Position numbers and translations under genes: made by a program
Shown: positions 7,622-50,474 of the stretch, one piece after another
Position numbering within the stretch: the stretch's first letter is position 1
Layout of the letters: each line of letters starts with the position of its first letter
Assembly (NCBI GenBank): GCA_964465575.1
Contig: CAYXIF010000003.1
Location: 52,296 to 111,589, forward strand
Reading direction: 5' to 3'
Length of the DNA stretch: 59,294 bases
From: an uncultured Candidatus Bathyarchaeia archaeon
Lineage (GTDB): Archaea > Thermoproteota > Bathyarchaeia > Bathyarchaeales > DTEX01
The notes under the pieces: model-generated
Database searches by the model: none
What the model was told of the DNA's origin: nothing
The model's input: only the letters and a program-made list of their open reading frames with translations

Positions 7622-7641
7622 GTAAAGTCCCTCAATCCCTT

Positions 7642-26102: not shown

Positions 26103-27554
26103 TTAGCCCTTTATCACAGCTAATGGAACCAGTCTTGCGACGTGCGTGGCGATCCCGAGAGCATCACTGACCTTCGCGACCTTCTCAACATTCTTGTAGG
26201 CTGGGTCTGCTTCTTCAGCCAAGACCACAGCGCTCTCTGACCTGACGACGATTCCTCTGCTTTCCAAGGATTTCTTGATGTCGCCGCCCCAGAAGCGCTT
26301 CTTCGCAGCCGCTCGGCTCATCATCCTCCCTGCTCCGTGGGCGGTTGACCCGAAAGACAGCTCCATAGCCTTCGAAGTGCCAACAAGCACGTGTGAACTC
26401 GTTCCCATTGAGCCTGGGATCAAGACAGGTTGCCCCAAGCCCCGGTACTCCGCCGGTACAGCTAAGTGACCAGGCGGGAAGGCTCTGGTCGCGCCCTTTC
26501 TGTGAATCCAGACTTTTGCGCGTTTGTCGCCGACATCGTGCTCCTCGATCTTAGCGATGTTGTGGGCTACATCATATGTCAGATTCAACCCCATCTTGTC
26601 CGCGGGCGTCTCAAAAATCTGTTCGAAGCTCTGTCGAACCCAATGCATGATGACATGACGGTTCACAAAGGCATAGTTCACTGCGCATGACATAGCTTTG
26701 AAGTAGTCTTGCCCTTCGTCACTTGGTCCAGGAGCGCACGCCAACTCTCGGTCAGGCAAGGCTATCTTGTACTTGTGAACTGCCCTCTCGGCGACGCGTA
26801 TGTAGTCTGAGCATATCTGGTGACCATATCCACGTGATCCACAGTGGATCATAACAGCGACTTGGCCTTCATGTGTTATGCCGAAAGCTTTGGCAACCTC
26901 TCCGTTGTAGATCCTATCGACTTTCTGGATCTCAAGAAAGTGGTTTCCTGAACCGAGCGTTCCAATCTGAGTCACGCCACGGTTCTTTGCAGTGCTTGAA
27001 ACCTTGTCCGGATCAGCGAGTTCCATGTGCCCTCCCTCTTCGCAGTGTTCAGTATCCTCCAGCCACCCATACCCCTGTTCGACCATTCGTGGCACACCTT
27101 CAACGACGATCCTGTTGAGTTCATGATCTGATATTCGAAGATCCTTTCTTCGGCTACCTAACCCGCAAGGAACATTTCTGAAGATCATGTCAGCTAGCTC
27201 ACGCAGTTTAGGTCTCACATCCATCTCTGAGAAGTTCGTCGTCAGCAACCGTACGCCACAGTTTATGTCGTAGCCTACTCCCCCGGGGCTTATGACGCCT
27301 TCGTCGTAGTCAGTGGCTGCAACGCCTCCGATTGGGAACCCGTAGCCCTCGTGCCCATCAGGTAAGGTAATGGCGTACTTGTAGATGCCTGGCAGATGTG
27401 TGACGTTCGCGCATTGCTCCAGAGTTCGATCAGTCTTCATCTTTTCAAGAAGATCTTCGTCTGTTAGAATAATGCCGGGAACCCTCATGCCCTGCTTGAA
27501 CTTTGTTGGGATGCGCCAAACGTACTTGTCTACTCTCTCAAGTGGGACACTCAT
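26103..27554 (-). CDS. rtcB: RNA-splicing ligase RtcB
   Basis: LPDGHEGYGFPIGG, GYDINCGVR, GSGNHFLE, HCGSRG, HRKGATRA, STAHGAGR. 483 aa from MSVPLE. Confidence 0.97.
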   Translation of the reverse strand: MSVPLERVDKYVWRIPTKFKQGMRVPGIILTDEDLLEKMKTDRTLEQCANVTHLPGIYKYAITLPDGHEGYGFPIGGVAATDYDEGVISPGGVGYDINCGVRLLTTNFSEMDVRPKLRELADMIFRNVPCGLGSRRKDLRISDHELNRIVVEGVPRMVEQGYGWLEDTEHCEEGGHMELADPDKVSSTAKNRGVTQIGTLGSGNHFLEIQKVDRIYNGEVAKAFGITHEGQVAVMIHCGSRGYGHQICSDYIRVAERAVHKYKIALPDRELACAPGPSDEGQDYFKAMSCAVNYAFVNRHVIMHWVRQSFEQIFETPADKMGLNLTYDVAHNIAKIEEHDVGDKRAKVWIHRKGATRAFPPGHLAVPAEYRGLGQPVLIPGSMGTSSHVLVGTSKAMELSFGSTAHGAGRMMSRAAAKKRFWGGDIKKSLESRGIVVRSESAVVLAEEADPAYKNVEKVAKVSDALGIATHVARLVPLAVIKG

Positions 27555-27685
27555 TTCTCTCTTCACCACACCAAACATTAGTGGGGGCCTAATATAAACT
27601 GTTTTGGCGTCGACACCAATAAATACTTTAACCCTAGCCGACATAATATGGGACAGAAAAGCAGAAGGTGAGCTGAAAGCCTCAA

Positions 27686-28168
27686 GTGAATGATATGCTT
27701 GTAAAGGTCTCCCGAAGGTTAACCCTTGAAGAGGTAGAAAAGCGAACAAAGGAGCTTGAGAAAACATACGAGATGACCTTTGACGAGTTCGAAGAGCAGC
27801 TCTTAACGGCTCGAAAGATGAAAGAAGAGTACATAGACGCCTATTTCAGATGGGCCAGGCTAGTGCACGCGCACCGGGGCTATGAAGAAGGAGGCGAACT
27901 CCACTGCATAGTAGAGGAACTGCGCGACCTTAGCTCAAAGGAGCTGAGGGCTTTCACGCCTAAGCGCTTGGAGCTACTTTGCGCTTTGGCTGATTTCAGA
28001 GTTGAGTCGATAAACGAGCTGGCGCGCAAGGTTCGCAGAGATGTCAAGAACGTGCATCAAGACCTTCAGGTTCTCTCAAGACTTGGCATTGTGAGAACGA
28101 CAAGGAAGCGAGGCAAGAAAATTGTCCCCGAAGTTCTTGTCGAAGAAGTAACCTTCGTAGCAAAGTAG
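27686..28168 (+). CDS. HTH transcriptional regulator/antitoxin-like protein (HVO_A0114-type C-terminal domain)
   Basis: FTPKRLELL...SINELARKVRRDVKNVHQDLQVL; N-terminal ELEKTYEMTFDEFE helix. Confidence 0.75.
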   Translation: MNDMLVKVSRRLTLEEVEKRTKELEKTYEMTFDEFEEQLLTARKMKEEYIDAYFRWARLVHAHRGYEEGGELHCIVEELRDLSSKELRAFTPKRLELLCALADFRVESINELARKVRRDVKNVHQDLQVLSRLGIVRTTRKRGKKIVPEVLVEEVTFVAK

Positions 28169-28240: not shown

Positions 28241-31200
28241 TTACAGCGTGCCTATGATTCTGTTCTTGTTCCTTGTCCAGTCCATAATTGCGTCGTGGAC
28301 GAAATCGATCGTTCTTTCGATTGTGCTCGCGGGCGTTCCCGGAACAGCAGGTTCCGTGGCAAGTCTCACGCGGTAGTAATCCTCTCTAGGGCTCTTTGTC
28401 AGAGACAGGCTGTTTCTGGTCTTTCTCTCTTCGCCTGTTCCCCCGAACCGGTAGCGGAATCTGATTTCCTTCACGAGTTCGCCTTTGACATTCTCGATCT
28501 CGGGCACGTTCTCGACATCATCGACACTCTCTAGCGTGCCCGTTTTCAGTTCATCGAGGCGGTCCAAGAAGAAGCCAATGAAGAACTCCTTCTCGCCTAG
28601 ACCCACCTTTACGGGCATGCTCAACTCTCTTCCCTGATAGACCTTGAATATCTCTTCCTTGCGGACCTTCGCCTTCTCCTCCGACAGTTTGAGGCGCTTG
28701 ACCTTCGATGGAGTATATGTGCTTACGGCCAACGCCGCAGGTCTGATGGATGAAAGCACAGATGCGGTTAACGCCAACGCGAAGCCGATCGCGCTCCACC
28801 ACCATTCCAGCTTCTCTCGTACCATGAGTTCCTGACCGAAGAGCACCATCACTCTGTAGAATCCCAACCCTAGTAAGTAACCGAGGCTACCGCCGACCAT
28901 GCCCAGAATTATGGCTTCAGCGACAAAGATCAGCCCTATGTGGGTCGGGTTCAGCCCAAGCATTGAAAGGGTCCTGATCTCCTTTCTCCGCTCGTAAACA
29001 GCATTCAGCATGACCATGCTGACGTTCAGCCCGACCATGACGAGCGGGATAATGAGCTCGGCTGCTCCCTTCATCTCGATGAAGGCGCCGATATGGTAGT
29101 ATGTGATGATCCTATTTGCCACAACAAAGACATCGAATTCCCATCCGTATATCAAGGTTCTCACCATTGAGTCAACGTCGACTGCAGCGCCGGGTTGAAA
29201 GACGATCTCAGAAATCACGGCGAATTCGGGCGCCCCCTCTGGGTGTCGGCTGGCGATAACTCCCTGAAGGGCCTCCGCGGTGTTCCAGCTTATCACCATG
29301 GTTTCTGTGTTGTTGCATCTTCTTACAGAGCCATCTGGAAGAAGCCGTGAAGGGCCAAGCGGGGAGCCATCCACGTCCACTAGACTCAGGTATCGGTCAT
29401 CATTGATCACCCCCTTAATGATAAAGCTTGTTGAAACTCTTGTCCCCAAAATCTCTGCGCTCACATTTTGACCTGTTGAGACGCCTAGGGTATCAGCTAT
29501 AGCTCTGCACAGTAGTACCTCGCCAATCTCGGTCTCGCCTAAGTAGCTGCCTTCGACCGCCTCGTCCAAGTTAGTATACATTGACTCAGCTGCCGGTGTT
29601 ACGCCAAGAACGCCGTAGATGAACCAAGTTTTCCCAGTTTTGGGGTCTGAGAGTCGAACGACTGGGTTGGGGCTAGGAATGTTCTTCAGCCTCACAGCAA
29701 TGTTCCTTATGTCAATTATCCGTGAAAGAACCTTGGCATCACTGGCCCCCAATGGCGAGAAGAGAAGCGAAGTTTCATTGAGCATCCTTTTCACGATTAT
29801 GCCGTCAGATGGCGCAGTTGCGGTCAGTCTGTCGGAGATGATGCCATACGCCGTCCCGAAGGAGGTCAACGAAGTAAAAGCCAGTATGAGGATGATTACG
29901 GATAGTATTGTAAAGAAACCCCGGATTTTTCGCCGTCTTATCTCCCGCTTCCCCATGGAGAAAATCAGTGCGATTGCACTTCTCCATGACACTTCTCCCT
30001 CTATCAGTCTCTCTCTCCAAACTCTAGGAAGACCAAAGATAATAGCTGAGACGCCAAGGAAAGATATTCCAGCAGACTGAAGGAAAAGCAGAACGTTCTC
30101 ATCAATCACTATGTGCGCGCCGGGGTAAGTAAAGTACAAGGAAACCAGAAAGATTGCATAGATTGCCACGCTTGCGAAAAGTTTTCTTCTCTTCTCCTCA
30201 AAGAAGAAGAAAGCCAGCACGGCGCTGAAGGCCGCCATGATCGCAGCTAGGTAGCCGGCGCTTGTCATGGCAATGAGCCGCATGCGGTCAAGAGCCAGTG
30301 AAACGACACGCATTATCCCTAGCACATCACGGAGGGTATTCCAGACCTCCAAGTAGTCGCGGTCCTCCTTTGCCCGCGTCAGGTCTGCACCAGCTTCAAG
30401 AATTCTTTGGTTGGCGGCTGTTAATGAGCGCCTCTCATCAAAGACTACAAAGCCGACGCCTTGTGCTGCGTTAACCGTACGCGAGACAACCACGAACTGC
30501 GCTTCAACATACCTGAGACCGCCTCTGAGGCTGTAGGCTGAGAGTTGGCTTGTAGCTCTGTGACCCTGAAGAAGAAAGAAAGGCAGCGAATCATTATACA
30601 GTCGGAAGGATTCGACCTCTATCCGTCCTCGTTCCCTTGCATAGAAGTAGGTCTGGGCTTCAAGAGTCACGGGTGTGTTCGCTGGAACGATCACGCACTG
30701 CCTGTCTAGACCCAGGAACCATCTGTGCTCTGAATCATAGTATGTGTCAAGGAAGGGTGCATTGAGCTTCTGCTCGCTTAGGACTTTGACGCGTAGGCTT
30801 TGTGCTCCTGGGCTCGAAGACCGAACAAGGTATGGTATACCCTCTAGCTCGATCAAGGCGCCGGGAACTAGTAAGAATGAGACTTGAGCTCCTTCAGGAA
30901 ACTCAACGAAAAGATCAACTTTAGGCGATGGAGCGTAGTCTATAGATCTCGATCCGAAGTCACCCTTGTATGCGTACAGCCTATACCAACGCTCCCGACC
31001 TACGTATGGTCCAGAGATTCTGTACTCTCCATTGTTGTCGGTGAAGTAGATTCCTGCGCCAACCTTTGGAGTGTCAAGGCTGTACAAATCCCACACTAGC
31101 ACTGTTGCATTCGGGATTGGGAGCCCAGTGTTTGCGTCGGCAACCTTGCCGTATATTGCGACCTCAGGTTGAGGAGCAGCAACGAGGGAACTCGCCATGA

Positions 31201-31270
31201 GGTTGGCAAGGGCTAGCAACAAAGTGACACTGGCGAGATACCTCAACCGGAAGGGCATGGCTGAAACCAT
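28241..31270 (-). CDS. Large MacB/FtsX-like permease with N-terminal carboxypeptidase-regulatory-like extracellular domain
   Basis: IYGKVADANTGLPIPNATV; SMGKREIRRRKIRGFFTILSVII; YERRKEIRTLSMLGLNPTHIGLIFVAEA. Confidence 0.85.
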   Translation of the reverse strand: MVSAMPFRLRYLASVTLLLALANLMASSLVAAPQPEVAIYGKVADANTGLPIPNATVLVWDLYSLDTPKVGAGIYFTDNNGEYRISGPYVGRERWYRLYAYKGDFGSRSIDYAPSPKVDLFVEFPEGAQVSFLLVPGALIELEGIPYLVRSSSPGAQSLRVKVLSEQKLNAPFLDTYYDSEHRWFLGLDRQCVIVPANTPVTLEAQTYFYARERGRIEVESFRLYNDSLPFFLLQGHRATSQLSAYSLRGGLRYVEAQFVVVSRTVNAAQGVGFVVFDERRSLTAANQRILEAGADLTRAKEDRDYLEVWNTLRDVLGIMRVVSLALDRMRLIAMTSAGYLAAIMAAFSAVLAFFFFEEKRRKLFASVAIYAIFLVSLYFTYPGAHIVIDENVLLFLQSAGISFLGVSAIIFGLPRVWRERLIEGEVSWRSAIALIFSMGKREIRRRKIRGFFTILSVIILILAFTSLTSFGTAYGIISDRLTATAPSDGIIVKRMLNETSLLFSPLGASDAKVLSRIIDIRNIAVRLKNIPSPNPVVRLSDPKTGKTWFIYGVLGVTPAAESMYTNLDEAVEGSYLGETEIGEVLLCRAIADTLGVSTGQNVSAEILGTRVSTSFIIKGVINDDRYLSLVDVDGSPLGPSRLLPDGSVRRCNNTETMVISWNTAEALQGVIASRHPEGAPEFAVISEIVFQPGAAVDVDSMVRTLIYGWEFDVFVVANRIITYYHIGAFIEMKGAAELIIPLVMVGLNVSMVMLNAVYERRKEIRTLSMLGLNPTHIGLIFVAEAIILGMVGGSLGYLLGLGFYRVMVLFGQELMVREKLEWWWSAIGFALALTASVLSSIRPAALAVSTYTPSKVKRLKLSEEKAKVRKEEIFKVYQGRELSMPVKVGLGEKEFFIGFFLDRLDELKTGTLESVDDVENVPEIENVKGELVKEIRFRYRFGGTGEERKTRNSLSLTKSPREDYYRVRLATEPAVPGTPASTIERTIDFVHDAIMDWTRNKNRIIGTL

Positions 31271-31446
31271 AGGATATACCGCCCTCAATCCTTTTAAAAG
31301 CTTTCTAGAAACCGCTTGTGGAAGTTTGTTGGACCATTGGAGGACAAGCTTACGCTCGAAGTCTACGCTAAGAGAGGATACTGCACTGCAACGAACGTTG
31401 GTGAGTGGCGGAATGGGGGGATCAGGAACCCTCATCGTTCACAAGA

Positions 31447-33345
31447 TCAGTAGGGCATGAGCCAAGTTGACCTAGATATGAGTCTCCATACACTGAGGAT
31501 GGTTGAGACTAACCCGTCTCCAATGAGCATGCCTATGACAACGAACCCCTTGTTCGCTTCCCAAAACCCGCCTCCTATGAACTTGCCGGCGGCAATGGAT
31601 AGCAGCGAGCCCGCGAATTGTGCAAGTGCAGCCCAAGGCGGCATTAACATGCCCGTCATCATGGCAATGGGAAACGACGGAATATGCAAAACCAAGTCGC
31701 AGACAAGGTAGAGAGCTGTGGAGATGCCGAAGCCCGTATACATCCATGTTGGTCTGAACAGGTATCCCGTCCAGAGCCAAGACTGCCAACGCCAGAAGTT
31801 CATGGCTTCCACTGGCCATGCAGAGATCGTGTAGGGATAAGCCCAGCCAGGTATGGGGTTCAGGCGCCAGAAAAGCGAGACGAATGTGAAGCTTCCTGCA
31901 AGTCCTAGTGCGATTATGAGGAAGAATGTCTTCGTGTACTCTTTCACGTCCACGCCCAGCATCGAGGCTTGGATGAGCTGCTGGCTTATGCCAGAACCGC
32001 CTAAGAACAAGGACATTTCAGACGGCAAGAACCATATGTCCAGCCCGCTGTAGCCGCTAGTGTAGATCAAGGTTTCACGAAGATATGGCAAGCTGAAGCC
32101 GCCACTAATACCCGCCGCGTGAGTCTGCAGGAGAGTGATCACAAACGATACTCCCAAAGTGAAGACCACCAAGACCCATACTGGAAAGCCTGGCACAAGA
32201 AGCAGCGTTAGGATGATTGCTGTTGCGGCTGTTGAAAGGTAGACTAACAGAAGCAATTTGCTATTGAGCCACTTCCCGCCAAACCCGCCAGTACGTTCCC
32301 TGATGCTTGCGAAGGCTCTAATGACTGTCTTGTGCTTGAGAAGAAGGGGGATTACGGCAACTGCTATACCCCACCCTATAGTGAAGCTATTCCAAAAGTA
32401 GAGCATCGACCTGCTATAGTGCCAGAAAACTCTCTGATTTGGAATCCATTGGCTCTCGACTGGCCAAAGACTGTTCTCTGTTATGTAGGTGTTGCCAAAA
32501 ACGTAGAGAGCAACACTTGCGATGAACTGAGCCGCAGTGTACTTAATATCTATGATAAAGCCCGGGAGATACAGTGTGAGATCAGTTGAGAACGAGAATG
32601 AAGCTCCTGGAAGTACGGTCTCCACGATGCTTGTGAATTCTACCAGAGTGCGTGGAACCAAAGGCACCGATATGAGGGTGGTGAGTCCATACGTTGCGAA
32701 CCCGTAGACAGCACCAGCCAAGATCGCCAGAGCAATGACCCTTATCCTACTTAAGTCTCTGTCTCCGAAAGACTTCATGGTTTTGGCGTCCCACGTTGCG
32801 AAAGGGAACTCCAGTTTTTCCTCTCGGGCATACAGACTGAAGGCAAAGAGCCCTAGAGTGTAGTTTGCTATGGCGGATAGTGAGATAGGTATGAAAACGC
32901 CAACCAAGATGGGCAGCGCCCAAGCCGCATCAAAGAACGTCCGGTTCATCATGGACCTAATGGCGTCATCCCCAAGAGGAGAAAAGAAACGAGGAACAGC
33001 GTGCTGGAGACCGAATATCTGCGCCACCTCAGAGTTGGCGAAGTATTGGTTGCGGAGCAGGTAAGCGAAGAAGTAGCCTGTGGCCATCAGACCAGTAGTC
33101 TCCATAGTTCGGATTATGAAAATCTCCTTTGAGGTGAGAGGCGATCCCAGCAGTCTTGTCAATCCCACCCAGAGCAAGATCACCGCCCAGCTGGTCAAAG
33201 CCAGACCCCAAAGACCTTCTACTAGCCAGTTGTATACAATGGCAGGCTGTATGATGAACACTATGAAGACGAACGCCATCATGGAGCGCCAAGTTAGACC
33301 TTTCTGTTCGGAGTGTATCTTCTCTAGAACCTCTGTCTCCCCCAC
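31447..33345 (-). CDS. OPT/YSL-like multi-pass membrane transporter
   Basis: LTWRSMM..., EKLEFPF motif, hydrophobic throughout; start overlaps the upstream stop. Confidence 0.65.
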   Translation of the reverse strand: MGETEVLEKIHSEQKGLTWRSMMAFVFIVFIIQPAIVYNWLVEGLWGLALTSWAVILLWVGLTRLLGSPLTSKEIFIIRTMETTGLMATGYFFAYLLRNQYFANSEVAQIFGLQHAVPRFFSPLGDDAIRSMMNRTFFDAAWALPILVGVFIPISLSAIANYTLGLFAFSLYAREEKLEFPFATWDAKTMKSFGDRDLSRIRVIALAILAGAVYGFATYGLTTLISVPLVPRTLVEFTSIVETVLPGASFSFSTDLTLYLPGFIIDIKYTAAQFIASVALYVFGNTYITENSLWPVESQWIPNQRVFWHYSRSMLYFWNSFTIGWGIAVAVIPLLLKHKTVIRAFASIRERTGGFGGKWLNSKLLLLVYLSTAATAIILTLLLVPGFPVWVLVVFTLGVSFVITLLQTHAAGISGGFSLPYLRETLIYTSGYSGLDIWFLPSEMSLFLGGSGISQQLIQASMLGVDVKEYTKTFFLIIALGLAGSFTFVSLFWRLNPIPGWAYPYTISAWPVEAMNFWRWQSWLWTGYLFRPTWMYTGFGISTALYLVCDLVLHIPSFPIAMMTGMLMPPWAALAQFAGSLLSIAAGKFIGGGFWEANKGFVVIGMLIGDGLVSTILSVWRLISRSTWLMPY

Positions 33346-36300
33346 TTTTCCTTCGCCTCTTTGATGTACCTCTGTTTCTCGTTAGGATCGAGCGCTCTCC
33401 ATATCAGGAATTGCTTCCGTATCTCATCGAGCAATGCCTTGTTGGAAGTAATCCATAGGTTCTCCACACCCATGGCTCTTTTTATAAGGATTTCGAAGCC
33501 GTAACGGTCAGCTGCCATCTGCCTGCAAACCACATGGAAGTCCTGAATTATGCCCGCATCAAAAGGCGAGAGCTGAAGACGAGCGCTGAGAACCCTTTCT
33601 TCGTCCCTATAGTGGAATCCCAAGGGCGCTAGGAGCATAAAGAGCCCAGTTCGTTCAGCCGCGGAGGCTTCAAGGAACTCTCTGAGGTAGTTCATAACGC
33701 CTAAGGATTCGTCTGGCGTCGCGTTGAACGGTAAGCCGACACTCCAACTGTCTCCAACTGGTTTGGTTCCGACCCTCCATTTTCTGATCAGCGAGGGTGT
33801 CACAAGTTTTGAGGCCTTCATCATGGGGTAAACCGAGGACAGCATTGTTGTTCCCATCATCACTCCGACAACGACGATGACGACTCCTGACGAAACATTG
33901 GGGATCAAGTCTTGTGGGAACAGCATCAAACCCCAGAGGATAGTGGTTATGCCAGCTCCGGACATATAGCCTAGAAAGCTCCCTAGGAAGGCTAGAGCTA
34001 CACTTTCCATGACGAAGATGGATCCAATGTGACGAGGAGAGAGCCCGACCGTGCTTAGGGTCGAGATCTCTCTTGTCCTTTCATACACGGCACTGAGCAT
34101 CATGGACAAGATGGTCAGAGAAGAGAGGAAAAGCGGCACAATCATGTTTTCTGCTCCGCTTAGTAAGTAGACGCTTCTTGTAGCGACCCTGCTCGCTACG
34201 TCCTCCTTCTTTAGACCGTAGTAGACATCGAAGGGCATTGCTAGAACCAGATCGAAGGACCGTTTCCGCAGACCATCCTCAAGAATCTGAGACTCAGACT
34301 GGAGCGAGATCGCGTTTGGCTGGGAGTTGAAAAATTCGACAGCAAAATCGTAGGGCACAAGTATCAAGCCGGAAACGTCGATTGGGGTTGCGACTCCTGT
34401 CAGAGATGTTCCGAGAGGGTCTGGCGGTCCAATGGGATTCTGATCTAGATCAACCTCCAGAAGAGTGGAGGCCACTTCTTCATCAAGGATTCCCATTATT
34501 GTGACCTGAATCCCATAGAGGCTAATCTTGGTGCCCGGCTTTACATCTATGCCCAGATCCCTGCTTAGGCCTTCAGCAAGAGTCTTGCTTATCATCACGG
34601 CCTTCGTCATCCCAGGAAGAAATGTAGTGCCTTGTCCAGGAACCACGGCGTACTCAAGAATTCTTGCTTCTTCAGCCGTTACTCCCAATAATCCTCTGAC
34701 CGCTGAATACTTAGACTCCCACACCATGACCATGCTCTGTCCAGGCGGATATATCCAAGCCCTGGGGTTTAGTTTAAAGTCTACTAGGCCTTCTGAGGCT
34801 ATGTCCTTGGTAGCTATGAGGTAATTTTCTGCAAGGGGGCTTCCTATGGCATCGGGCAGCGGTCTCTTGAGCAGGATACCCGTGTAAGCCGAAGAACCTA
34901 CTACGGCTCTGTAGGATTGAACCATAACGCCCATTGATGTAAATAGCGTCATTGCGGAGATTGTTATGACTATGGTTGACAGGGTGAGAGCTGTTCGCAT
35001 GGGTCGTTTCTTGAGGTTCTCGACTCCCATCGACAGGGAAGAGGCTAGCAGACTTCCCCTCTCAATGTCAGATCGGTGAGAGCCAAGTATCGACTCGCTT
35101 ATGGACTTCACAGCTGTGTTAAACTCGCCTACGATAACGTAGAAAAGTAGAATGGAGAACAGTATGACCGACAGCCCATCAACGAGCATCCAGATGTTTG
35201 AAGAAATGGCGTAGCCTGGGTGGACTAAGCTGAGAGCAAGGTTTGTTACCAAGAACAAGGCTACTGTTATCATCATCCGCCTTGTGCCAGTTACTCTCCC
35301 CGAGACGACTTTACCAAGGAGCAGGACGAATGCCGCGGAAAGGAAGAAGAAGAATATTGCTGTTCGTACAACGTCAAGTATGAGGTCAAACGAGGCATTG
35401 TAGACATTCAGCGCATTCTGCCAGCAAGCGATAGAGAACGAGTAGAGTCTCCCCTTGTCCCCATTCCTTAAGGCGTCCTCCGCCAGCTGCCGATACTTGT
35501 ACATTGCTTCGATGTGCAAGACCATCTTGGGGTTGGCTGACATCCTTGCCAGTAGGAAGCCTCCTCTAGCGTGAGCCAACCGATATATCCCGTCAATGGC
35601 ATCAAGAAGGGTCAAGGTCAGGGTCTCGCCATGTCTGAGAGTATATCCTTGACCATCAGGGTGATCGTCTGAAGCATCATTCATAACGGCAATCACGCGT
35701 CCCGCGCTTCTAACCAGTATCTCCGTAGGCACATCAGGTTCAACAAAGACCATGGCTTCAGGCCAGACCGCTAGGGTGTCTCGCCAAACAAAGTAGCTGT
35801 GTGAGATGAAGTTGTAGATTTCCACCGACAGAGCGCGCGGATCTTCAACCCTCAACGGATCGAACAAGCCCAGAAGAGCGATGGATGAACACTCGAAGAT
35901 CGGGATATACTGGCTTCCATGAGTGGTGTAAACGCTGAAGCTCCTTGCACCAGCGCCTGTTGCTATCAAGTAGCCTAAGCCACCTGCCCCGGGAGTAAGG
36001 GTAGGAGCTGCAGCAGAAGATGGCGCCCCAAAAAGTGAGCCGAGCTTCTTGCCAGTGCCAAAAGGCCCTGTATCCGTTGCGTGGGTTATACTTCCGGTTT
36101 CTGGTTCAAGGATGTATGCTTGCGCATCTATACCCGTAAGAGGCTTGACCCCTTTCAGGGTAGCTCTGCCGTTTGCGTCAGGCTTCAGGACAGCCGTGAA
36201 ACCGAGTGGCGCGCTCAACGTCATTCCTGTCACTCGCCCTCCTGGACCGGCGACCGGGGGCGCAGCAAACAGCCCAGCGGTTACTCCTTGCACAACAACG

Positions 36301-37994
36301 CTTTTCGAAGCTCCCACAGATGCTAATGGACTGAAGCCAGCGTACACTACAGCGTCAACAGGGTTCATGGATGGGCCTACGGACACAAAGTAGATTGCGT
36401 CTTTGTGAGCAAAGTCGTTGAACCAGTCTGTTGTGCTGTTGTACTGTGCAAGCCTTAGAGTTACTGTCACAAGCCCGTGATCTAGAGCCCCGGCTCTCCT
36501 AGGGTACAAGGCATAGTACACATCCATGCTTGCGGACTCGTACAGAATTGGCCACAGGAAGGTTGCTTGCTTTCGAAGGTTTTCTGGTTGTATCCTTTCG
36601 AATGTGTCGAAGGGTGTGTATTGATAGACCCTGAAGGCGTTTGTTGTGATAAACCCTAACCCTCCTGCATAGCAGGCTTCGGTGAAGACTTCAGCCTCGA
36701 AATATTTCAGAAATGACTCAAAAGGCGGAGCGGCGGCTATCCAAGTTGGCCTAGCCCATTGAATGCCGTCTATTACGTGGAACGTCTCACCTGTTCTCGC
36801 CTCAAGGGGAGGTAGCCATTCCTCAAAAATGCGTCTTAGCCAAAGATTGTACGACGGCACAAAGTCCTGAGGCCTATAGTACCCATACATCGCGCCCGTC
36901 GCGTACACGGCAAGAGTGTCGCTGTCGCTTGCGAGGTCGAGGCTCATCATCATCTTGATCTTAACCTCTAACTTGCTGAAATGGTTCTCCACGAACTCTC
37001 GAGCTCCCGCCAACGCTTGGTAATGCCCGGCAAAGGCAACAAGCCAAACGGTTCTCTTGGGAGGCGTCGCTCTCAGAAGCCTAGAAACTTCCAGTAGGAA
37101 CGCGACACCCATCGAGTCGGTTGCGCCAGGTGAAAGCTGGGGAACGGCAGACCACGAGTCATAGTAGGCGCCGATGACCGTCACTTCATTCTTCAGGGAC
37201 GGGTCGGTTCCTTCCACGATGGCGATGAGGTTTGCCACTTCCCTCTCTTTCCAGGCCATCATTGAGTCAACCCAGATCGTTACCTCTCTGTTCTTTGATG
37301 TGAGGTCTTTGAGAACTGACGCAGTCTCTCCCTTGACGTATAGCCTCGGGAAGTTGATGGGAACGCTGAACATCTTCTGAACAGACTGCATTCCCGTGGT
37401 GTCTTGAGGCTCTAGGAAGATCACACCTTTCGCCCCAAACAAGGCGGCGTTTTTCCAGTACCATCTGTGGTTGAATTCCATCAAGACGAAAGAACCTTCC
37501 GGGTCAATGCCTTCGAAGTCTTCTGGAAGCCCTCTATCAACGTAGACAAGCTTGTCGCCCTTCGCGGGGCTCCTATACGGTGAAGGGTTAACGTGGTTAG
37601 GCCAAAGTGGGTACGCTTCAAAAGTAGCCTTTGACCCCTCTAGGTTCTGGATTGTTACAAACGATCTCTCAACAAGCGGAGTCGCTAACCTGAAAGGCTC
37701 CTCTCGTACCTCAAGGCCTATCGAAGACCAGTAACTCCTAACGTATCTCGCAGCCTCAAAGAAGCCATCGTATCCAACAACGCGAGAACCAAGGCCAGAA
37801 AGGAATCTGACGTGCTGCAGGATGTTGCTTAAGTTGATCTGAGTTAGGTCGGCTGCTTCGGTGGTCAAGGAGCCGCTCGTCGAGAACGCCTTTACCGTCA
37901 AGGGTTCTTGAGCGACCAACGCGAGAAAGGCGAGGGCAAGCGTACAAAGGGTGACACACTGCAGACGAAACTCGGGTCGCATCATACCACCCAT
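33324..37994 (-). CDS. Giant PA/M28-like domain + MacB/FtsX-like permease fusion
   Basis: Signal peptide; GSRVVG; PA-like segment; IGAYYDS, PGATDS, AGHYQALAG, SLDL; SMGVENLKKRPMRTALTL; YERTREISTLSTVGLSP. Confidence 0.85.
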   Translation of the reverse strand: MGGMMRPEFRLQCVTLCTLALAFLALVAQEPLTVKAFSTSGSLTTEAADLTQINLSNILQHVRFLSGLGSRVVGYDGFFEAARYVRSYWSSIGLEVREEPFRLATPLVERSFVTIQNLEGSKATFEAYPLWPNHVNPSPYRSPAKGDKLVYVDRGLPEDFEGIDPEGSFVLMEFNHRWYWKNAALFGAKGVIFLEPQDTTGMQSVQKMFSVPINFPRLYVKGETASVLKDLTSKNREVTIWVDSMMAWKEREVANLIAIVEGTDPSLKNEVTVIGAYYDSWSAVPQLSPGATDSMGVAFLLEVSRLLRATPPKRTVWLVAFAGHYQALAGAREFVENHFSKLEVKIKMMMSLDLASDSDTLAVYATGAMYGYYRPQDFVPSYNLWLRRIFEEWLPPLEARTGETFHVIDGIQWARPTWIAAAPPFESFLKYFEAEVFTEACYAGGLGFITTNAFRVYQYTPFDTFERIQPENLRKQATFLWPILYESASMDVYYALYPRRAGALDHGLVTVTLRLAQYNSTTDWFNDFAHKDAIYFVSVGPSMNPVDAVVYAGFSPLASVGASKSVVVQGVTAGLFAAPPVAGPGGRVTGMTLSAPLGFTAVLKPDANGRATLKGVKPLTGIDAQAYILEPETGSITHATDTGPFGTGKKLGSLFGAPSSAAAPTLTPGAGGLGYLIATGAGARSFSVYTTHGSQYIPIFECSSIALLGLFDPLRVEDPRALSVEIYNFISHSYFVWRDTLAVWPEAMVFVEPDVPTEILVRSAGRVIAVMNDASDDHPDGQGYTLRHGETLTLTLLDAIDGIYRLAHARGGFLLARMSANPKMVLHIEAMYKYRQLAEDALRNGDKGRLYSFSIACWQNALNVYNASFDLILDVVRTAIFFFFLSAAFVLLLGKVVSGRVTGTRRMMITVALFLVTNLALSLVHPGYAISSNIWMLVDGLSVILFSILLFYVIVGEFNTAVKSISESILGSHRSDIERGSLLASSLSMGVENLKKRPMRTALTLSTIVITISAMTLFTSMGVMVQSYRAVVGSSAYTGILLKRPLPDAIGSPLAENYLIATKDIASEGLVDFKLNPRAWIYPPGQSMVMVWESKYSAVRGLLGVTAEEARILEYAVVPGQGTTFLPGMTKAVMISKTLAEGLSRDLGIDVKPGTKISLYGIQVTIMGILDEEVASTLLEVDLDQNPIGPPDPLGTSLTGVATPIDVSGLILVPYDFAVEFFNSQPNAISLQSESQILEDGLRKRSFDLVLAMPFDVYYGLKKEDVASRVATRSVYLLSGAENMIVPLFLSSLTILSMMLSAVYERTREISTLSTVGLSPRHIGSIFVMESVALAFLGSFLGYMSGAGITTILWGLMLFPQDLIPNVSSGVVIVVVGVMMGTTMLSSVYPMMKASKLVTPSLIRKWRVGTKPVGDSWSVGLPFNATPDESLGVMNYLREFLEASAAERTGLFMLLAPLGFHYRDEERVLSARLQLSPFDAGIIQDFHVVCRQMAADRYGFEILIKRAMGVENLWITSNKALLDEIRKQFLIWRALDPNEKQRYIKEAKEKWGRQRF

Positions 37995-38357: not shown

Positions 38358-40355
38358 GTGAAAATGGCCGAAGAAGTCAAAAGCGCTTTAACACCAAAAC
38401 TATGGGTAACGTTGATAGTGATCTCTGCGGTCATGAGCTTCGTAGGTGTTCTAACAGCTCCATTTGCTCCAAGCTGGGCTTGGTCAACGATCTTCGGGTC
38501 TTTCACAGCGCCACTCGTCACGTTGTTCATCGTGCTGGTCATCTCAAAAATAGCCAGTCCCTTCACAAAGGCATTGACCCCACAGAAACTGGCTCTGTTG
38601 TACACGGTGACAGCAATGTCCGTCGTCTTCTGCTGGAGCTGGATCCCCTATGGCATAGTGCACAACGCTGTGAACATGCGATTCTTCTTGTTCGATTGGC
38701 ATCCTGGAACCACTGCCGTGGCCAAGCAAATCGTGTTCGGTCCGCTCAACCGTGATGCTGTGCTGCCGATTCTGACAGGTGGAGTCTCTACGCCGTGGGG
38801 TGATTGGGCACCCTTCCTAGGCTGGTGGTTGGCGTACACAGTACTGTGGCTGCTCTTTTGGGTCGGATGGTTGGCTCTGCTTCAAGAGAGATGGATTGAG
38901 GTGGAGAAGCTTCCGTTCCCAGCCGCTCTGACCGGAACGATGCAGATCGGGTTGGCGACGAAGTCGGAGAAGATGGAGACTGAAGGGAGACTCAAGTTCT
39001 TCATGCTTGGATTCGTGATAGGAGCGGTGGTCATCCTGCCAGTGATCGCACGGGCATTGAACCGAGCGATACCTGACCTGTACGGCTGGACAGCAACACC
39101 TTACTTACCATGGTTCTTGGGCACAATAAGCGTAGGCAACCTTCCTGCTTTCAGGGCAATTCCAGTATGGTCCTTCCTGCCAGTGAACCCAATGATCTAC
39201 GCCCTCTTCTACCTCTTCCCAGCGAAGATCCTGTTCTCCATATGGTTCTTCTCGCTGGTAGGCGTGCTGATCCCAAGCCAACTCGCCTACTATATGGGCT
39301 ACTACACGGCGCTTGCAGAGCAGGCGGATCGATTCCATGGATTCATGGGAGGCGAACCCTTCAAGTGGATTGGCGTGTGGATTGGGTCTTTCGTGGGCCT
39401 GATCCTTACGTGGTTTGCACTCAACCTATCGTACATGAGAAGCCTACTCAGAAAGCCCGTTGAGCCAGAGAAGAAAGCCATCCCATATATGTTGGGTCTG
39501 CTGATGATCGTGGTATCAACTGTTGCTCTCATCGCCTTACTCTTGGTAGCAGGGGTCCACCCGTTGGGCACACTGATTATCGTATTCACAATGTGGGTGC
39601 TCTACCTTTCAACGGTTAGAGTCTACGGTTTCGCTAGCATCACTGGCACTGCCTGGGGCTCTCCAATAGACTGGTCTCACTACCCATTCCTGCTGAAGCA
39701 TCTCTTCATCCCTGATCCGCGCACAAGGAACGCCGTGATCTCAACAACGATGCAGATGGGTAACAGGTGGACAGGAGAGCTGATGGGTGAGAACAACACA
39801 CAGTGGGGCATGGTTTTCGCGATCCCGATGTGTTACAAGGTAGGATACGACACTGGAACCCACCCGCGAGACATCACAAAGCTAGTCTTGGTTTCGGGCA
39901 TCATCTCAGCTCTCATAGGTTACCCAACTGCCGTGTGGTTTGGCTACGCATATGGCACGAACAACACTCCAATGACGCTATTCGACGCTTGGTGGCTATG
40001 GACATTCGACCAGCCTTGGGGTGACATCGCCACGATTGGCGCCAATGAGCCTCTATGGCCTCACATAATCGCAGGCATCGTCTTGACACTGGTACTGAGC
40101 GTTCTGAACTTCCGTTTCCTGTGGTGGCCTCTGGATCCTGCGGGTGTTGCCTTGGCTCTAGGCGCGGCCGGAACTGGATGGCTCATCCCAGGCCTGCTTG
40201 CATGGGTAGTAAAGACACTGGTTCTCAGAACAGGCGGCACAAAGCTCAACGACAGAGTAGTGACACCAATCGTTGTCGGGCTACTTGTAGGCTACTGGTT
40301 TATCATGTTCCTAGGAGCCTTCCTAGGACTGATCCAGTTCTTCCTACCAAAGTAG
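38358..40355 (+). CDS. OPT-like (DUF6785/DUF6784-like) multi-pass membrane transporter
   Basis: 665 aa hydrophobic; ERWIEVEKLPFP motif shared with the 31447 protein; WWPLDPAGVA C-terminal motif. Confidence 0.6.
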   Translation: MKMAEEVKSALTPKLWVTLIVISAVMSFVGVLTAPFAPSWAWSTIFGSFTAPLVTLFIVLVISKIASPFTKALTPQKLALLYTVTAMSVVFCWSWIPYGIVHNAVNMRFFLFDWHPGTTAVAKQIVFGPLNRDAVLPILTGGVSTPWGDWAPFLGWWLAYTVLWLLFWVGWLALLQERWIEVEKLPFPAALTGTMQIGLATKSEKMETEGRLKFFMLGFVIGAVVILPVIARALNRAIPDLYGWTATPYLPWFLGTISVGNLPAFRAIPVWSFLPVNPMIYALFYLFPAKILFSIWFFSLVGVLIPSQLAYYMGYYTALAEQADRFHGFMGGEPFKWIGVWIGSFVGLILTWFALNLSYMRSLLRKPVEPEKKAIPYMLGLLMIVVSTVALIALLLVAGVHPLGTLIIVFTMWVLYLSTVRVYGFASITGTAWGSPIDWSHYPFLLKHLFIPDPRTRNAVISTTMQMGNRWTGELMGENNTQWGMVFAIPMCYKVGYDTGTHPRDITKLVLVSGIISALIGYPTAVWFGYAYGTNNTPMTLFDAWWLWTFDQPWGDIATIGANEPLWPHIIAGIVLTLVLSVLNFRFLWWPLDPAGVALALGAAGTGWLIPGLLAWVVKTLVLRTGGTKLNDRVVTPIVVGLLVGYWFIMFLGAFLGLIQFFLPK

Positions 40356-40728: not shown

Positions 40729-42183
40729 CTATGGCTTGATACGCGTCTTGGCCCGACCTCTTACAACCATGTACCCAACAGCCGCAGCGACAGCCGCTGC
40801 TGCTCCTATTGCCACATAAAGCCATGGGAACCCTTCTCCCAGAGGGGTCAGAGTGACTTGCGGCACCACATTTACTGTCTGAACGCTTGGTATCACCGAG
40901 CCGCCGAATTGAATTCCTTGGTTAGGCGGTGTTGAAGGCCAGTGCAACACTTGGATGATCACATTCTTGTCAGTAACGATCTTGTGCGATCCAGGATGAG
41001 TCAGCGCAAAGTAGGTGTGGGGTTGTATTGGTCGGGATACGTCGTCTATTGTCACCTTTGTAAGCTCGCTTGCGAAAACATATGCCTCCACATTGGATTC
41101 CGTAGGTAGGAAGAACGCAGTTTCTTCATTAGCCTTCACTCCTATATAGGCGACTCCGGACCCGTACGCACCGTACATTTCGAGCAACAGCCTACGAATG
41201 CTGCCGTTGTGGATGAAGGTCACTGTGACTGGCTTGTCGCTTTGCATTATGAACGCTTCTGCTTTGGGCTTGACTCCGATGCTGCCTCCTCCCTTGACGG
41301 CGACCTCCTCAAGTTTCTGTTTCGTTTCTAGGTTCCATACTGATACTTTTGCATCACTTGTGGCAGAAATCTGGAACCCATAACCCTCAACGCTATCCCA
41401 ATCTGTAGTCGATCCCGAGTAGAAGACCTTTCCAACGAAACCTCCTTCAGCAGAGGGCACAGCGTAGCTTCGGCGTGCATCGTATCGTCCTCCGATTGCG
41501 CCACATTGGATCATGATGGCGCCTGTCGACTCAACCTTGTATGCTCTGAAGGGCTTCAACATGAGGCGCTGAAACGAATTGGGCTGGAGCGTGTAGACGT
41601 TTTGAGAACCATCTTCCCCTGTCACCGTGACTCGGGAGTTCTCCAAAGCGAAGATAATGTAAGGTGTTCCACCAAGCTGAGAAGCTATGAAAACAAACTT
41701 TCTACCGACGTAGGCGCCGTCTGTCGCTGTGTAGTAGGTGCTTGGGAGAGGGCCTTCTGAGGCGTTGGAGGCAGGAATCCCCCCGCTTAGTAAGGCAACG
41801 CTGACTACGCGGTCTGACGTGACCTTGAAGATTGAGCCATTAGGGAACAATGCATAATGCTTCTCCATGCTGTTAAGATTGGCCTGAGACACCAAACGGC
41901 CGTCGGGAAGTGAGTAGACCTGAACATTCGTGTTGCCTTCCGAAGCGATAATCGCAACTAGACCAGAGCTTCCTTCTGTGCCGTTAACCAGTAGCCAACC
42001 TGAACTGAGGTTGTTCATATCATCGAGCTCCATCCGGTGGATCTTGGCGGGCACAACCCCATAGTAAGTGTACTGTTCAACGGAGCCATCAAGAGAAGTT
42101 GACACGAGGCAGGAAGCCAGCAGCAGAACGACAGAGAAAAGGTGAGCCGCGCGGTCAAAAAGCAAGCGGTTCTTTCCCGACAC
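40729..42183 (-). CDS. Secreted, C-terminally anchored beta-rich surface protein (IgGFc-binding-domain-like)
   Basis: N-terminal signal; repeated IA.E..T.V.V / KV.SD..V.V units; C-terminal TM helix plus basic tail (VRGRAKTRIKP). Confidence 0.6.
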   Translation of the reverse strand: MSGKNRLLFDRAAHLFSVVLLLASCLVSTSLDGSVEQYTYYGVVPAKIHRMELDDMNNLSSGWLLVNGTEGSSGLVAIIASEGNTNVQVYSLPDGRLVSQANLNSMEKHYALFPNGSIFKVTSDRVVSVALLSGGIPASNASEGPLPSTYYTATDGAYVGRKFVFIASQLGGTPYIIFALENSRVTVTGEDGSQNVYTLQPNSFQRLMLKPFRAYKVESTGAIMIQCGAIGGRYDARRSYAVPSAEGGFVGKVFYSGSTTDWDSVEGYGFQISATSDAKVSVWNLETKQKLEEVAVKGGGSIGVKPKAEAFIMQSDKPVTVTFIHNGSIRRLLLEMYGAYGSGVAYIGVKANEETAFFLPTESNVEAYVFASELTKVTIDDVSRPIQPHTYFALTHPGSHKIVTDKNVIIQVLHWPSTPPNQGIQFGGSVIPSVQTVNVVPQVTLTPLGEGFPWLYVAIGAAAAVAAAVGYMVVRGRAKTRIKP

Positions 42184-47797: not shown

Positions 47798-47798
47798 A

Positions 47799-49208: not shown

Positions 49209-49213
49209 GCCTC

Positions 49214-50461: not shown

Positions 50462-50474
50462 GAGGCACGAAAGA

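Follow-up and report, generated by a model that had tools for sequence, protein, structure and literature searches.

EnvC, the partner of FtsEX, carries a LytM metallopeptidase-like domain that is catalytically dead, and to our knowledge all characterised FtsX/MacB-type systems either transmit force outward or export. The metal centre of M28 enzymes is described by five ligand positions, sites 1-5 (defined in Table 1 of PMC7522609); in every one-zinc enzyme of the M28 type characterised so far, the metal is bound by sites 2, 3 and 5, and the one-zinc glutaminyl cyclases are a case in which the M28 fold has been repurposed for non-peptidase chemistry with an altered metal stoichiometry (PMC7522609). 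In GPAA1, a 2EK8-like M28 head without the zinc motif is carried by a polytopic membrane protein and is thought to recruit substrates rather than to cleave them (PMC9098846).

The window analysed here, a stretch of 59,294 nucleotides from an uncultured Candidatus Bathyarchaeia archaeon, encodes a protein in which an M28-like head that has lost three of its five zinc ligands is joined to an FtsX-type membrane module (see the table). The sequence-only reading of this DNA had pointed to four unusual motifs (IGAYYDS, PGATDS, AGHYQALAG and YQYTPFDT) and to a permease tether; all four motifs do lie in one intact ORF, and the tether is real, as the Pfam matches to FtsX and MacB_PCD attest. The protein is full length, homologues of the same architecture being 1450-1600 aa long. 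In the predicted 7-TM topology the head forms the N-terminal third and faces outward, covalently mounted on the FtsX-type four-helix module via a beta-rich stalk and three extra TM helices (TMa 879-897, TMb 907-925, TMc 937-955); the AlphaFold model has a pLDDT of 87.7. The N-terminal segment is of the Sec type and may be cleaved. The stalk contains three Gly/Pro/Ala-rich loops of low AF2 confidence, and no family could be assigned to it, a Pfam search at E<=1 giving noise only. The hairpin and extra TM helices can also be aligned with the paralogous second FtsX-type neighbour. The MacB/FtsX module consists of a cytoplasmic elbow, TM1 (1005-1025), an extracytoplasmic MacB_PCD-like domain (Pfam, 1001-1173) and TM2-4 (1285-1385), with an intact coupling-helix motif, ERTREI, after TM2 that is identical in the PDB phmmer matches 5xu1, YtrF, LolC and MacB. 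The C-terminal alpha/beta domain is kept throughout the family; it had no match in the Pfam search and is weakly START/Bet v1-like (Foldseek best E 2.8e-3, TM <=0.46).

Features of the M28-like/FtsX fusion gene and its neighbours (positions in the window; residues of the fusion protein)
Feature	Residues	Position	Strand	Basis or remark
M28-like/FtsX fusion gene, 1556 aa		33324..37994	-	intact ORF; Pfam FtsX 3.6e-14, Peptidase_M28 8.6e-14, MacB_PCD 5.3e-06
N-terminal signal/anchor segment	1-34	37893..37994	-	hydrophobic core 9-27 (Kyte-Doolittle); model: helix 7-28, disordered linker 30-48
PA-domain-containing M28-fold ectodomain	~45-500	36495..37862	-	AF2 pLDDT mostly >90; Foldseek; phmmer vs PDB
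IGAYYDS	274-280	37155..37175	-	site 1 His replaced by Tyr277; Asp279 invariant
PGATDS	289-294	37113..37130	-	site 2 bridging Asp kept (Asp293)
AGHYQALAG	322-330	37005..37031	-	catalytic Glu replaced by His324; site 3 Glu by Tyr325
SLDLAS	351-356	36927..36944	-	site 4 Asp kept (Asp353); acidic Ser/Asp stretch next
YQYTPFDT	457-464	36603..36626	-	site 5 His replaced by Tyr459
Beta-rich middle stalk	~501-795	35610..36494	-	AF2 secondary structure and pLDDT
Helical hairpin and three extra TM helices before FtsX module		35130..35609	-	hydropathy scan, AF2
MacB/FtsX-type module		33795..35117	-	Pfam; NCBIfam LolC/E, ADOP, MacB partial matches; PDB phmmer
Cytoplasmic C-terminal alpha/beta domain	~1401-1556	33327..33794	-	AF2 pLDDT 93, pTM 0.86
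Downstream partner, polytopic membrane protein, 632 aa		31447..33345	-	distantly OPT-like; start overlaps fusion-gene stop by 22 nt
DUF6785/DUF6784 membrane protein, 665 aa		38358..40355	+	Pfam; divergently transcribed; paralogue of downstream partner
Second FtsX-type protein, 1064 aa		28241..31435	-	Pfam FtsX 4.7e-11

Canonical positions were assigned by HMMER alignment to the solved M28 enzymes 2ek8, 6hc6, 3iib and 2anp; for site 5 (Tyr459) the alignment has a low score, yet it is identical with three templates. The earlier claim that the canonical zinc ligands and the catalytic Glu are lost stands for sites 1, 3 and 5 and for the general-base Glu, but not for the two Asp ligands, Asp293 and Asp353, which the alignment shows to be kept. 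Neither the canonical di-zinc centre nor the known one-zinc centre can form with the residues present: here and in all 246 relatives examined, other residues have taken the place of the general-base Glu and of the ligands at sites 3 and 5. We infer that the head no longer acts as a zinc aminopeptidase, and, as the sequence-only reading had suspected, a peptidase annotation would probably be wrong.

The protein belongs to a large family. A search of 596 Gb of prokaryotic genomes with the two family motifs as patterns matched 222 stretches; relatives are encoded by 152 of them, and the 80 that were kept all come from archaeal MAGs. At 50% identity the family falls into at least 535 clusters. It appears confined to Thermoproteota, and a single MAG can contain as many as six paralogous loci. 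Public records name its members 'M28 family peptidase' or 'FtsX-like permease family protein', and the former name is probably misleading or wrong for the family.

Across the 246 distinct relatives, Glu-Glu never occurs at 324/325, while His occupies 324 in 220 and Tyr or Phe in about 8%; the pattern is due neither to chance nor to an artefact of sequencing. The conserved pair is His-[Tyr/Trp] rather than the HY or HF named in the sequence-only reading; position 325 is Tyr, Trp or His, also Asn or Gly. At position 277 the close relatives have Y98/H19/F3 and the wider sample H72/Y44, so that Tyr277 is a subclade feature, the first His ligand often being kept in the wider family. Asp279 is invariant (120/120 close relatives and 127/127 of the wider sample), position 293 is almost always acidic (D85/E35 in close relatives, E73/D47 in the wider sample), and Asp353 is found in 105/120 and 98/127, respectively. 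Arg332, just past AGHYQALAG (118/120 close relatives), and Gln326 are conserved residues specific to the family. The result is a near-constant constellation of Asp279, acid293, His324, aromatic325, Gln326, Arg332 and Asp353, around which positions 277, 325 and 459 vary even between paralogues in a single genome, 459 being the most variable of the former ligand positions (G/Y/R/K/N/Q and others). The M28-like region is the best conserved part of the protein (0.53-0.54 vs 0.37-0.51 elsewhere, the stalk being lowest at 0.37), and the former active site is its conserved core. Because the replacement His is near-invariant and the site forms the core of the best conserved region, the loss of ligands fits a repurposed binding site or a rewired one rather than decay. 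These were the two options offered by the sequence-only reading, and sequence by itself cannot choose between them.

The sequence-only reading had not noticed the two OPT-like genes nearby. The fusion gene and the downstream partner, whose start overlaps the fusion-gene stop, form a tight operon, and in 60 of 65 loci the gene that immediately follows on the same strand is OPT-like (gaps -97 to +102 nt). The partner matches the DUF6785 family by hhalign (probability 99.1, E 8e-19) and 4 of 38 orthologues match Pfam OPT (best 1.5e-8); no Pfam model matches the downstream ORF of the window itself, and the relationship to OPT is one of remote homology only. The divergent DUF6785 paralogue has a counterpart within 10 kb in 48/69 loci, and one orthologue of it matches OPT too. 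No solved structures related to these neighbour proteins were found. The two OPT-like proteins, rather than the FtsX-type module, are the likely permeases, and for the module 'mechanotransmitter' is a better description than 'substrate channel'. The second FtsX-type protein resembles the fusion protein (BLASTP 26% identity over 544 columns, E 4e-18) in a paralogous membrane module with an unlike ectodomain, and is an optional member of the cluster (12/69 loci). An ABC ATPase is linked in just 6/69 loci, five of which are one orthologous locus with the gene about 6 kb away. The wider gene context differs between loci and indicates no substrate.

Our preferred reading, which we hold tentatively, is that the protein is part of a machine in the membrane and at the cell surface, its head being a non-canonical ligand-capture or gating domain, instead of a peptidase, on a mechanotransmitter that serves the OPT-like permeases. 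The most economical candidate ligand would be a peptide or another amine-bearing solute, its amine held by the carboxylates of Asp293 and Asp353, by aromatics and by His324 in the pocket that formerly received the substrate N-terminus. The FtsX-type module could then relay a conformational change by which ligand is loaded onto, or released to, the adjacent OPT-like permease, driven by an ATPase encoded elsewhere and common to a genome's paralogues or by a different input that arrives via the cytoplasmic C-terminal domain. Specificity would be tuned by the differences between paralogues at 277, 325 and 459. We know of no OPT transporter that uses a binding protein.

The head might instead still be an enzyme, a rewired hydrolase in which His324 would serve as general base or nucleophile; working at the cell surface on peptides or another polymer, it would feed the OPT-like permeases, using either no metal or a single one in a remnant Zn2-type site (His/Tyr277, Asp/Glu293, Asp353 and possibly the acidic Ser/Asp stretch). 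The 220 relatives with His at exactly the general-base position, the retention of acid293 and Asp353, a site 1 His in 72/127 of the wider sample, the invariance of its second-shell partner Asp279, the pocket's place as the best conserved part of the protein and the repurposing seen in glutaminyl cyclases (PMC7522609) all speak for it. However, the characterised one-zinc M28-type enzymes all use sites 2, 3 and 5 (PMC7522609), and sites 3 and 5 are lost here; a large share of the family, the fusion protein included, has Tyr or Phe at site 1; His324 itself gives way to Tyr or Phe in some members; and the first shell is not fixed as that of a catalytic metal would be, with 325 variable and 459 accepting anything. 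We regard it as rather unlikely. An ordinary di-zinc M28 aminopeptidase, drawing its ligands from other residues and deserving its public label, is hardly credible: the fold is intact, two Asp ligands are kept, and Pfam Peptidase_M28 scores 52.1 bits against a gathering threshold of 21.3, but the match is confined to positions 1-105 of a 193-position profile, the catalytic Glu and the site 3 and 5 ligands are replaced throughout, and no substitute conserved His or Glu is evident around the motifs.

The locus could also encode an outward-acting envelope or export machine, comparable to FtsEX-EnvC, LolCDE and MacB, in which the dead head is a protein-protein interaction or regulatory domain controlling surface-layer, glycan or lipoprotein processing and the OPT-like proteins are flippase or exporter partners, not importers. 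The kept coupling-helix motif, the outward action of the characterised FtsX/MacB-type systems and the precedent of EnvC agree with this, as does the recruitment of protein substrates by the heads of GPAA1 and nicastrin (PMC9098846). The second FtsX paralogue with its unlike ectodomain counts on the same side. Nevertheless, as many as six paralogous loci in one genome, with pockets that have diversified, would suit a nutrient-specificity family better than a housekeeping envelope machine, and conserved envelope-biogenesis genes are absent near the examined loci. Characterised OPT members are importers, and the tight operon accordingly points to solute transport. On balance, such a machine seems improbable. 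The ligand-capture reading is supported by the constant core with its variable periphery, the number of paralogous loci, the OPT synteny and the GPAA1 precedent; it is weakened by features that suit a rewired hydrolase (His324, the two carboxylates and a site 1 His in ~40% of the family), and by the remoteness of the OPT link, the unlinked ATPase and a gene context without substrate clue.

Set against known systems, the ectodomain is closest in sequence and structure to the Aneurinibacillus AM-1 aminopeptidase 2EK8, B. subtilis BSAP/YwaD 6HC6 and P. aeruginosa PaAP 8AC7 (best Foldseek matches 2ek8, 8ac7, 6hc6 and 3iib, E 1e-22 to 6e-26, then GCPII/III and TfR1). It resembles the PA-domain M28 aminopeptidases in its alpha/beta core with inserted PA domain, in motif order and in having both Asp ligands, whereas the bacterial enzymes are secreted and soluble and have the full His-Asp-Glu-Asp-His set plus catalytic Glu. 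Where glutaminyl cyclases have retained the Glu together with sites 2, 3 and 5, the present family is left with just sites 2 and 4 and, in some members, site 1. With Type VII ABC/MacB-FtsX-LolCE proteins it has in common the FtsX-type helix bundle, an extracytoplasmic domain between TM1 and TM2 and an ERxREI coupling helix, and with FtsEX and its dead-LytM partner a disabled metallopeptidase-like domain on the outer face. Unlike FtsEX, MacB and LolCE, it has a covalently fused head, three extra TM helices, a novel cytoplasmic C-terminal domain, an archaeal host, no linked ATPase gene at the typical locus and an operon with OPT-like proteins. The latter are polytopic, ~630-690 aa long and mutually homologous, and some orthologues reach Pfam OPT, although homology to the OPT superfamily is very remote; we know of no OPT member that works with an FtsX-type partner. 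Finally, GPAA1, nicastrin, nicalin and TfR1 likewise join an M28-like head without a functional zinc site to TM helices within a membrane machine, where the head is proposed to bind or recruit substrates and not to cleave them (PMC9098846), and TfR1 is among the sequence and fold matches of the ectodomain. However, they are eukaryotic, their TM parts are unrelated, no specific homology beyond the M28 fold was seen, the bacterial enzymes outscore them, and the site described here is a strongly conserved new constellation rather than a degenerate one. The fusion proteins are a large and undescribed family, a fresh form of the pseudo-M28 membrane heads known from GPAA1, nicastrin and TfR.

The part of the window in which a sequence-only reading had placed an M28 domain tethered to a permease coincides with exactly one intact ORF (33324..37994, minus strand), encoding a fusion protein of 1556 aa. 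Its Pfam domains and hydrophobic segments are listed in the table of features; NCBIfam gave partial matches only, to LolC/E, ADOP and MacB-type permeases, and MacB_PCD is annotated in many relatives of the fusion protein. By the predicted topology, residues ~35-875 and the PCD are extracellular and the final ~155 residues cytoplasmic. In a PDB search the membrane module aligned with the S. pneumoniae MacB-like permease 5xu1, YtrF, LolC and MacB, and the coupling helix that follows TM2 reads ERTREI, identical to that of 5xu1 (ERxREI type), with E1305, R1306, E1309 and I1310 each at least 90% conserved. The C-terminal helix bundle, the extracytoplasmic TM1-TM2 domain and the coupling helix, all features of the FtsX class, are present.

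Features of the fusion protein, its neighbours and the rest of the window (positions in the window; residues of the fusion protein)
Feature	Window	Strand	Residues	Basis or remark
N-terminal hydrophobic segment			9-27	hydropathy scan
Peptidase_M28			255-365	Pfam 8.6e-14, 52.1 bits vs cutoff 21.3; profile positions 1-105/193 only
Stalk, Gly/Pro/Ala-rich loops	36000-36330	-	~554-670	low-confidence; 554-564, 587-591, 652-670
Three transmembrane helices			879-955	hydropathy scan
MacB_PCD (PF12704)			1001-1173	Pfam 27.3 bits vs cutoff 27.0, marginal
Four further transmembrane helices			1005-1385	hydropathy scan
FtsX (PF02687)			1287-1396	Pfam 3.6e-14
C-terminal domain, predicted cytoplasmic	33327-33794	-	~1401-1556	conserved
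Downstream gene, OPT-like (remote)	31447-33345	-		632 aa, polytopic
Second FtsX-type protein	28241-31435	-		1064 aa
DUF6785/DUF6784 gene	38358-40355	+
CO dehydrogenase/acetyl-CoA synthase cluster	44899-52719	+
Possible sugar or inositol-type island	848-10531
PurL/PurQ	1912-5182			within 848-10531
RtcB tRNA ligase ORF	26103-27767	-		554 aa; Pfam match begins at residue 118
ORF, no significant Pfam match	40729-42183	-		484 aa
ORF, no significant Pfam match	10763-12160	+		465 aa
ORF, no significant Pfam match	20619-21512	+		297 aa
tRNA-His(GTG)	9119-9196	+		ARAGORN; below Rfam gathering score
tRNA-Ala(TGC)	13154-13229	+		ARAGORN; Rfam gathering score reached

An AlphaFold2 model of residues 1-900, built from a 50-sequence alignment, reached a mean pLDDT of 87.7 and a pTM of 0.86. 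Foldseek against the PDB ranked PA-domain M28 aminopeptidases at the top (2ek8 at 6e-26, then PaAP, BSAP and 3iib), followed by GCPII/III, NAALADase L and transferrin receptor 1, and phmmer against the PDB matched the fusion protein to 2ek8 at 5e-11. Behind the head lies a beta-rich region (~509-795) to which no family could be assigned, and a helical hairpin then enters the membrane. This stalk is the least conserved region of the fusion protein, and its loops may be flexible surface linkers. The C-terminal 161 residues are predicted to adopt a confident fold (pLDDT 93) of strand-helix-six-strand-two-helix order, for which no Pfam family was found; its structural matches, START/Bet v1/SRPBCC-like, are all weak (best E 2.8e-3, TM <=0.46). 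The domain is located where input to the FtsX module might act.

The motifs to which the sequence-only reading had pointed are all present (residues 274-280, 289-294, 322-330 and 457-464), and SLDLAS occupies residues 351-356. Positions of the former active site were assigned from HMMER alignments to the solved M28 aminopeptidases 2ek8, 6hc6, 3iib and 2anp. In 1amp, sites 1-5 are His97, Asp117, Glu152, Asp179 and His256 (PMC7522609, Table 1), with Zn1 on sites 2, 3 and 5 and Zn2 on sites 1, 2 and 4, and the one-zinc enzymes of M28 type use sites 2, 3 and 5 (PMC7522609). That reading's loss of the zinc ligands holds for three of the five, sites 1, 3 and 5, but not for the aspartates of sites 2 and 4, which are kept; its loss of the catalytic glutamate is borne out in full. 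Judged by these alignments, neither the di-zinc centre nor the one-zinc centre on sites 2, 3 and 5 of known M28-type enzymes could assemble in the head. The presumed convergence of Tyr277, Asp293, His324, Tyr325, Asp353 and Tyr459 rests on homology to M28 structures.

Positions of the former M28 active site in the window protein and in its relatives (A1, 120 close relatives; A4, 127 representatives at 50% identity)
Position	Role in M28 enzymes	Canonical residue	Window protein	A1	A4
277	site 1	His	Tyr	Tyr98/His19	His72/Tyr44
279			Asp	120/120	127/127
293	site 2 (bridging)	Asp	Asp	D85/E35	E73/D47
324	general base	Glu	His	His 116	His 105
325	site 3	Glu	Tyr	Tyr68/Trp36	Trp58/Tyr22/His22
326			Gln	100	86
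332			Arg	118	105
353	site 4	Asp	Asp	105	98
459	site 5	His	Tyr	variable	variable

A search with the first 900 residues returned 203 protein clusters; the 120 matches listed are nearly all 1450-1570 aa long with the M28+FtsX architecture throughout, and their hosts include Bathyarchaeia, Thermofilaceae, Ignisphaera, Thermosphaera and Baldrarchaeia. When the M28-like part served as query of an exhaustive HMMER search, 4567 matches came up at E<=1e-3, 535 of them at E<=1e-30, and the family comprises at least 535 clusters at 50% identity. Since the best 150 representatives from this search are all fusion proteins, almost all of ~1500 aa, the boundary to the canonical M28 enzymes was not reached. 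No intact-site relative that would date the loss was found, the pair formed by the general-base Glu and the site 3 Glu (the EE pair) occurring in 0/246 relatives of the pooled A1 and A4 sets; in the same pool position 324 is His in 220.

The M28-like region is the best conserved of the protein, with a mean majority-residue frequency of 0.53-0.54 vs 0.37-0.51 in other regions. Together with the column counts, this shows, as far as alignments can, that a new selected residue constellation replaces the former active site, rather than decay, and that a predicted polar/aromatic pocket is under strong selection. The constant core consists of Asp279, an acid at 293, His324, Gln326, Arg332 and Asp353, and the varying periphery of 277, 325 and 459. 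Because the site 1 His is often kept in the wider family, Tyr277 is a trait of the window's subclade. We also considered an Fe(III)-type site of Tyr, His and Asp, as in transferrin or purple acid phosphatase, and rejected it as a family feature, with 277 being Tyr, His or Phe, 325 Tyr, Trp, His, Asn or Gly, and 459 variable. Paralogues inside single genomes retain the constant core and differ at 277, 293, 325 and 459. The Bathyarchaeia MAG JAWCEH01 carries six separate family loci (L010, L026, L044, L057, L078 and L083), with the residues at 277/293/325/459 varying among its five full-length fusion ORFs, and many other MAGs have two copies.

The fusion gene is translationally linked to the gene of the OPT-like membrane protein, which begins 22 nt ahead of the fusion-gene stop, and the DUF6785/DUF6784 gene lies upstream in divergent orientation. 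Distant homologues at five metagenomic loci show the same arrangement. When GTDB species were scanned, each through a single genome, 152 loci emerged, of which 80 were kept, every one from an archaeal MAG (Bathyarchaeia, Thermofilaceae, Thermoproteales, Desulfurococcaceae, Brockarchaeota and others). When the locus ORFs were scored with HMMs built from our own alignments, 69 loci contained a full-length fusion gene. A gene of the 632-aa type followed directly on the same strand in 60/65 loci with enough downstream sequence, at distances of -97 to +102 nt (mostly overlaps), and a DUF6785-type gene lay within 10 kb in 48/69. The two neighbour families are homologous (hhalign probability 99.1%, E 8e-19, 550 columns). 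The window's downstream ORF had no match in Pfam, OPT (PF03169) included, while 4/38 orthologues match OPT (best 1.5e-8), as does one DUF6785 neighbour; in each family it is a minority of members that does so. No relative of solved structure was found for either by sequence or profile, and their assignment to OPT, made from sequence, is a remote one. Sugar-metabolism genes are close to some loci and the wider context is not conserved; at one locus (L001), three ~500-aa ORFs that lack Pfam matches adjoin the module.

None of those ORFs of the 59-kb window that reach 150 aa was recognised as an ABC ATPase. Across the 69 loci, an ORF with Walker A and LSGGQ motifs occurred within +/-10 kb in only six, in none of them adjacent, and five of the six represent one orthologous locus with the gene ~6 kb off on the other strand; this test searched ORFs of at least 120 aa, up to 10 kb away, for the motifs by regular expression, with a partner encoded elsewhere outside its reach. 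FtsX/MacB modules with an intact ERTREI yet no nearby ABC ATPase gene are unusual for this transporter class. The second FtsX-type protein, which could be a heterodimer partner, shares 26% identity with the fusion protein in its membrane module (E 4e-18) and has an unlike ectodomain; such a second FtsX gene is present in 12/69 loci. A CarboxypepD_reg match in this protein suggested homology to nicalin-NOMO-TMEM147, which we rejected because the match is sub-threshold (20.5 vs 32.3 bits), because the gene is confined to those 12 loci and because the fold search does not favour nicalin or nicastrin.

On these sequence comparisons we tentatively favour a head that acts as a ligand-capture or gating domain and not as a zinc aminopeptidase. 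By economy, the likeliest ligand would bear a free amine, as the N-terminus of a peptide does, with the amine held by the two retained carboxylates, surrounded by aromatic residues, His324, Gln326 and Arg332, and with specificity set by the variable positions. The FtsX-type module would couple the cytoplasm to the head by relaying changes of conformation, and the actual conduit would be the OPT-like partner. With no linked ATPase and numerous paralogues, a shared ATPase encoded elsewhere would be the simplest energy source, shared ABC ATPases such as MsiK being a precedent; the alternative would be an ATP-independent role.

That the head is still an enzyme, a rewired hydrolase, seems to us somewhat unlikely: a nearly constant His where the general base would be, acids that are still in place and the frequency of a site 1 His in the family would suit it, but the first shell is not fixed and the catalytic Zn1 site is lost. 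An ordinary di-zinc aminopeptidase is extremely improbable. The multiple paralogues, the diversification of the pocket and the OPT-like partners argue in turn against an outward-acting envelope or export machine in the manner of FtsEX-EnvC, Lol or MacB, which everything known of FtsX-type modules would otherwise support and which we regard as quite unlikely. The capture reading can be extended to one in which the fusion protein, its OPT-like partner and the DUF6785 paralogue form an unrecognised, archaea-specific machine for solute acquisition, with the head an 'N-terminus reader' or ligand receptor, a MacB/FtsX-type mechanotransmitter that has no ATPase of its own coupling surface capture to OPT-like import, and the several paralogues of a genome tuned to differing substrates; this extension is, in our view, doubtful.

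Elsewhere in the window, the CO dehydrogenase/acetyl-CoA synthase cluster comprises Prismane/CODH with Fe-S domains, CdhC/ACS beta and two CdhD-type genes, with CooC/ParA-like ATPases coming after it, and is consistent with a Wood-Ljungdahl genome of Bathyarchaeia type. A second cluster, of three GFO/IDH/MocA oxidoreductases, a xylose-isomerase-like TIM barrel, an MR_MLE enolase-superfamily gene and a small LexA-DNA-binding-like regulator, interrupted by PurL/PurQ, looks like a sugar or inositol-type catabolic island. For the RtcB ORF, either the true start lies downstream of that of the longest ORF or the protein is extended at its N-terminus.

Literature searches found no description of an M28-like/FtsX archaeal family. 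To judge by these searches, neither the family itself nor its conserved replacement site, His-(Tyr/Trp)-Gln ... Arg, appears to have been described before; the same goes for the joining of the head to an FtsX/MacB module that carries additional helices and a cytoplasmic domain of novel type, for the missing linked ATPase and for the conserved operon with OPT-like/DUF6785 proteins. In GenBank the designations 'M28 family peptidase', 'FtsX-like permease family protein' and 'ABC transporter permease' seem to be used for members without distinction, the first label being about as frequent as 'FtsX-like permease'. Bathyarchaeia and related Thermoproteota belong to the most abundant archaeal groups of sediments and hot springs, and their role in detrital protein degradation has been deduced largely from peptidase annotations. 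In estuarine sediment metagenomes, M28 is among the most abundant extracellular peptidase annotations and has been linked to Leu-AMC hydrolysis, and such annotations are taken to indicate a potential for extracellular aminopeptidase activity in sediments for which Bathyarchaeota are discussed (PMC6752024). If the head lacks peptidase function, such inventories count too many aminopeptidases; if the solute-acquisition reading is true, a considerable fraction of the genes counted as 'extracellular M28 peptidase' in Bathyarchaeia and other Thermoproteota would be receptors, not enzymes. The family also offers an FtsX/MacB-type module with no linked ATPase and a first functional handle on DUF6785/DUF6784 and archaeal OPT-like proteins.

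Compared with known systems, the head has sequence and fold homology in common with the active M28 metallo-aminopeptidases (MEROPS M28/Pfam PF04389), but those have five ligands and the EE pair, whereas the head is without three ligands and the pair. Type VII ABC permeases (MacB/FtsX/LolCE) have their cognate ATPase fused or encoded alongside, unlike the fusion gene. Non-peptidase homologues in the MEROPS sense are a familiar category, and catalytically disabled M28-fold heads are found on the eukaryotic membrane proteins TfR1, nicastrin, nicalin and GPAA1, which, like the fusion protein, join an M28/PA-like ectodomain with an incomplete zinc site to TM segments and for which the family offers a prokaryotic counterpart. 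Specific common ancestry with these four is not supported, the best matches being bacterial PA-M28 enzymes, with TfR1 and GCPII lower in the ranking and GPAA1 and nicastrin absent from the top 50; the resemblance is one of functional analogy only. GPAA1 carries a 2EK8-like head that lacks the zinc motif on a polytopic membrane protein, mutation of its candidate ligands left function unaffected, and its authors propose that the head recruits substrate, as for nicastrin (PMC9098846). By analogy, GPAA1 would be the closest precedent in kind for the head of the fusion protein.
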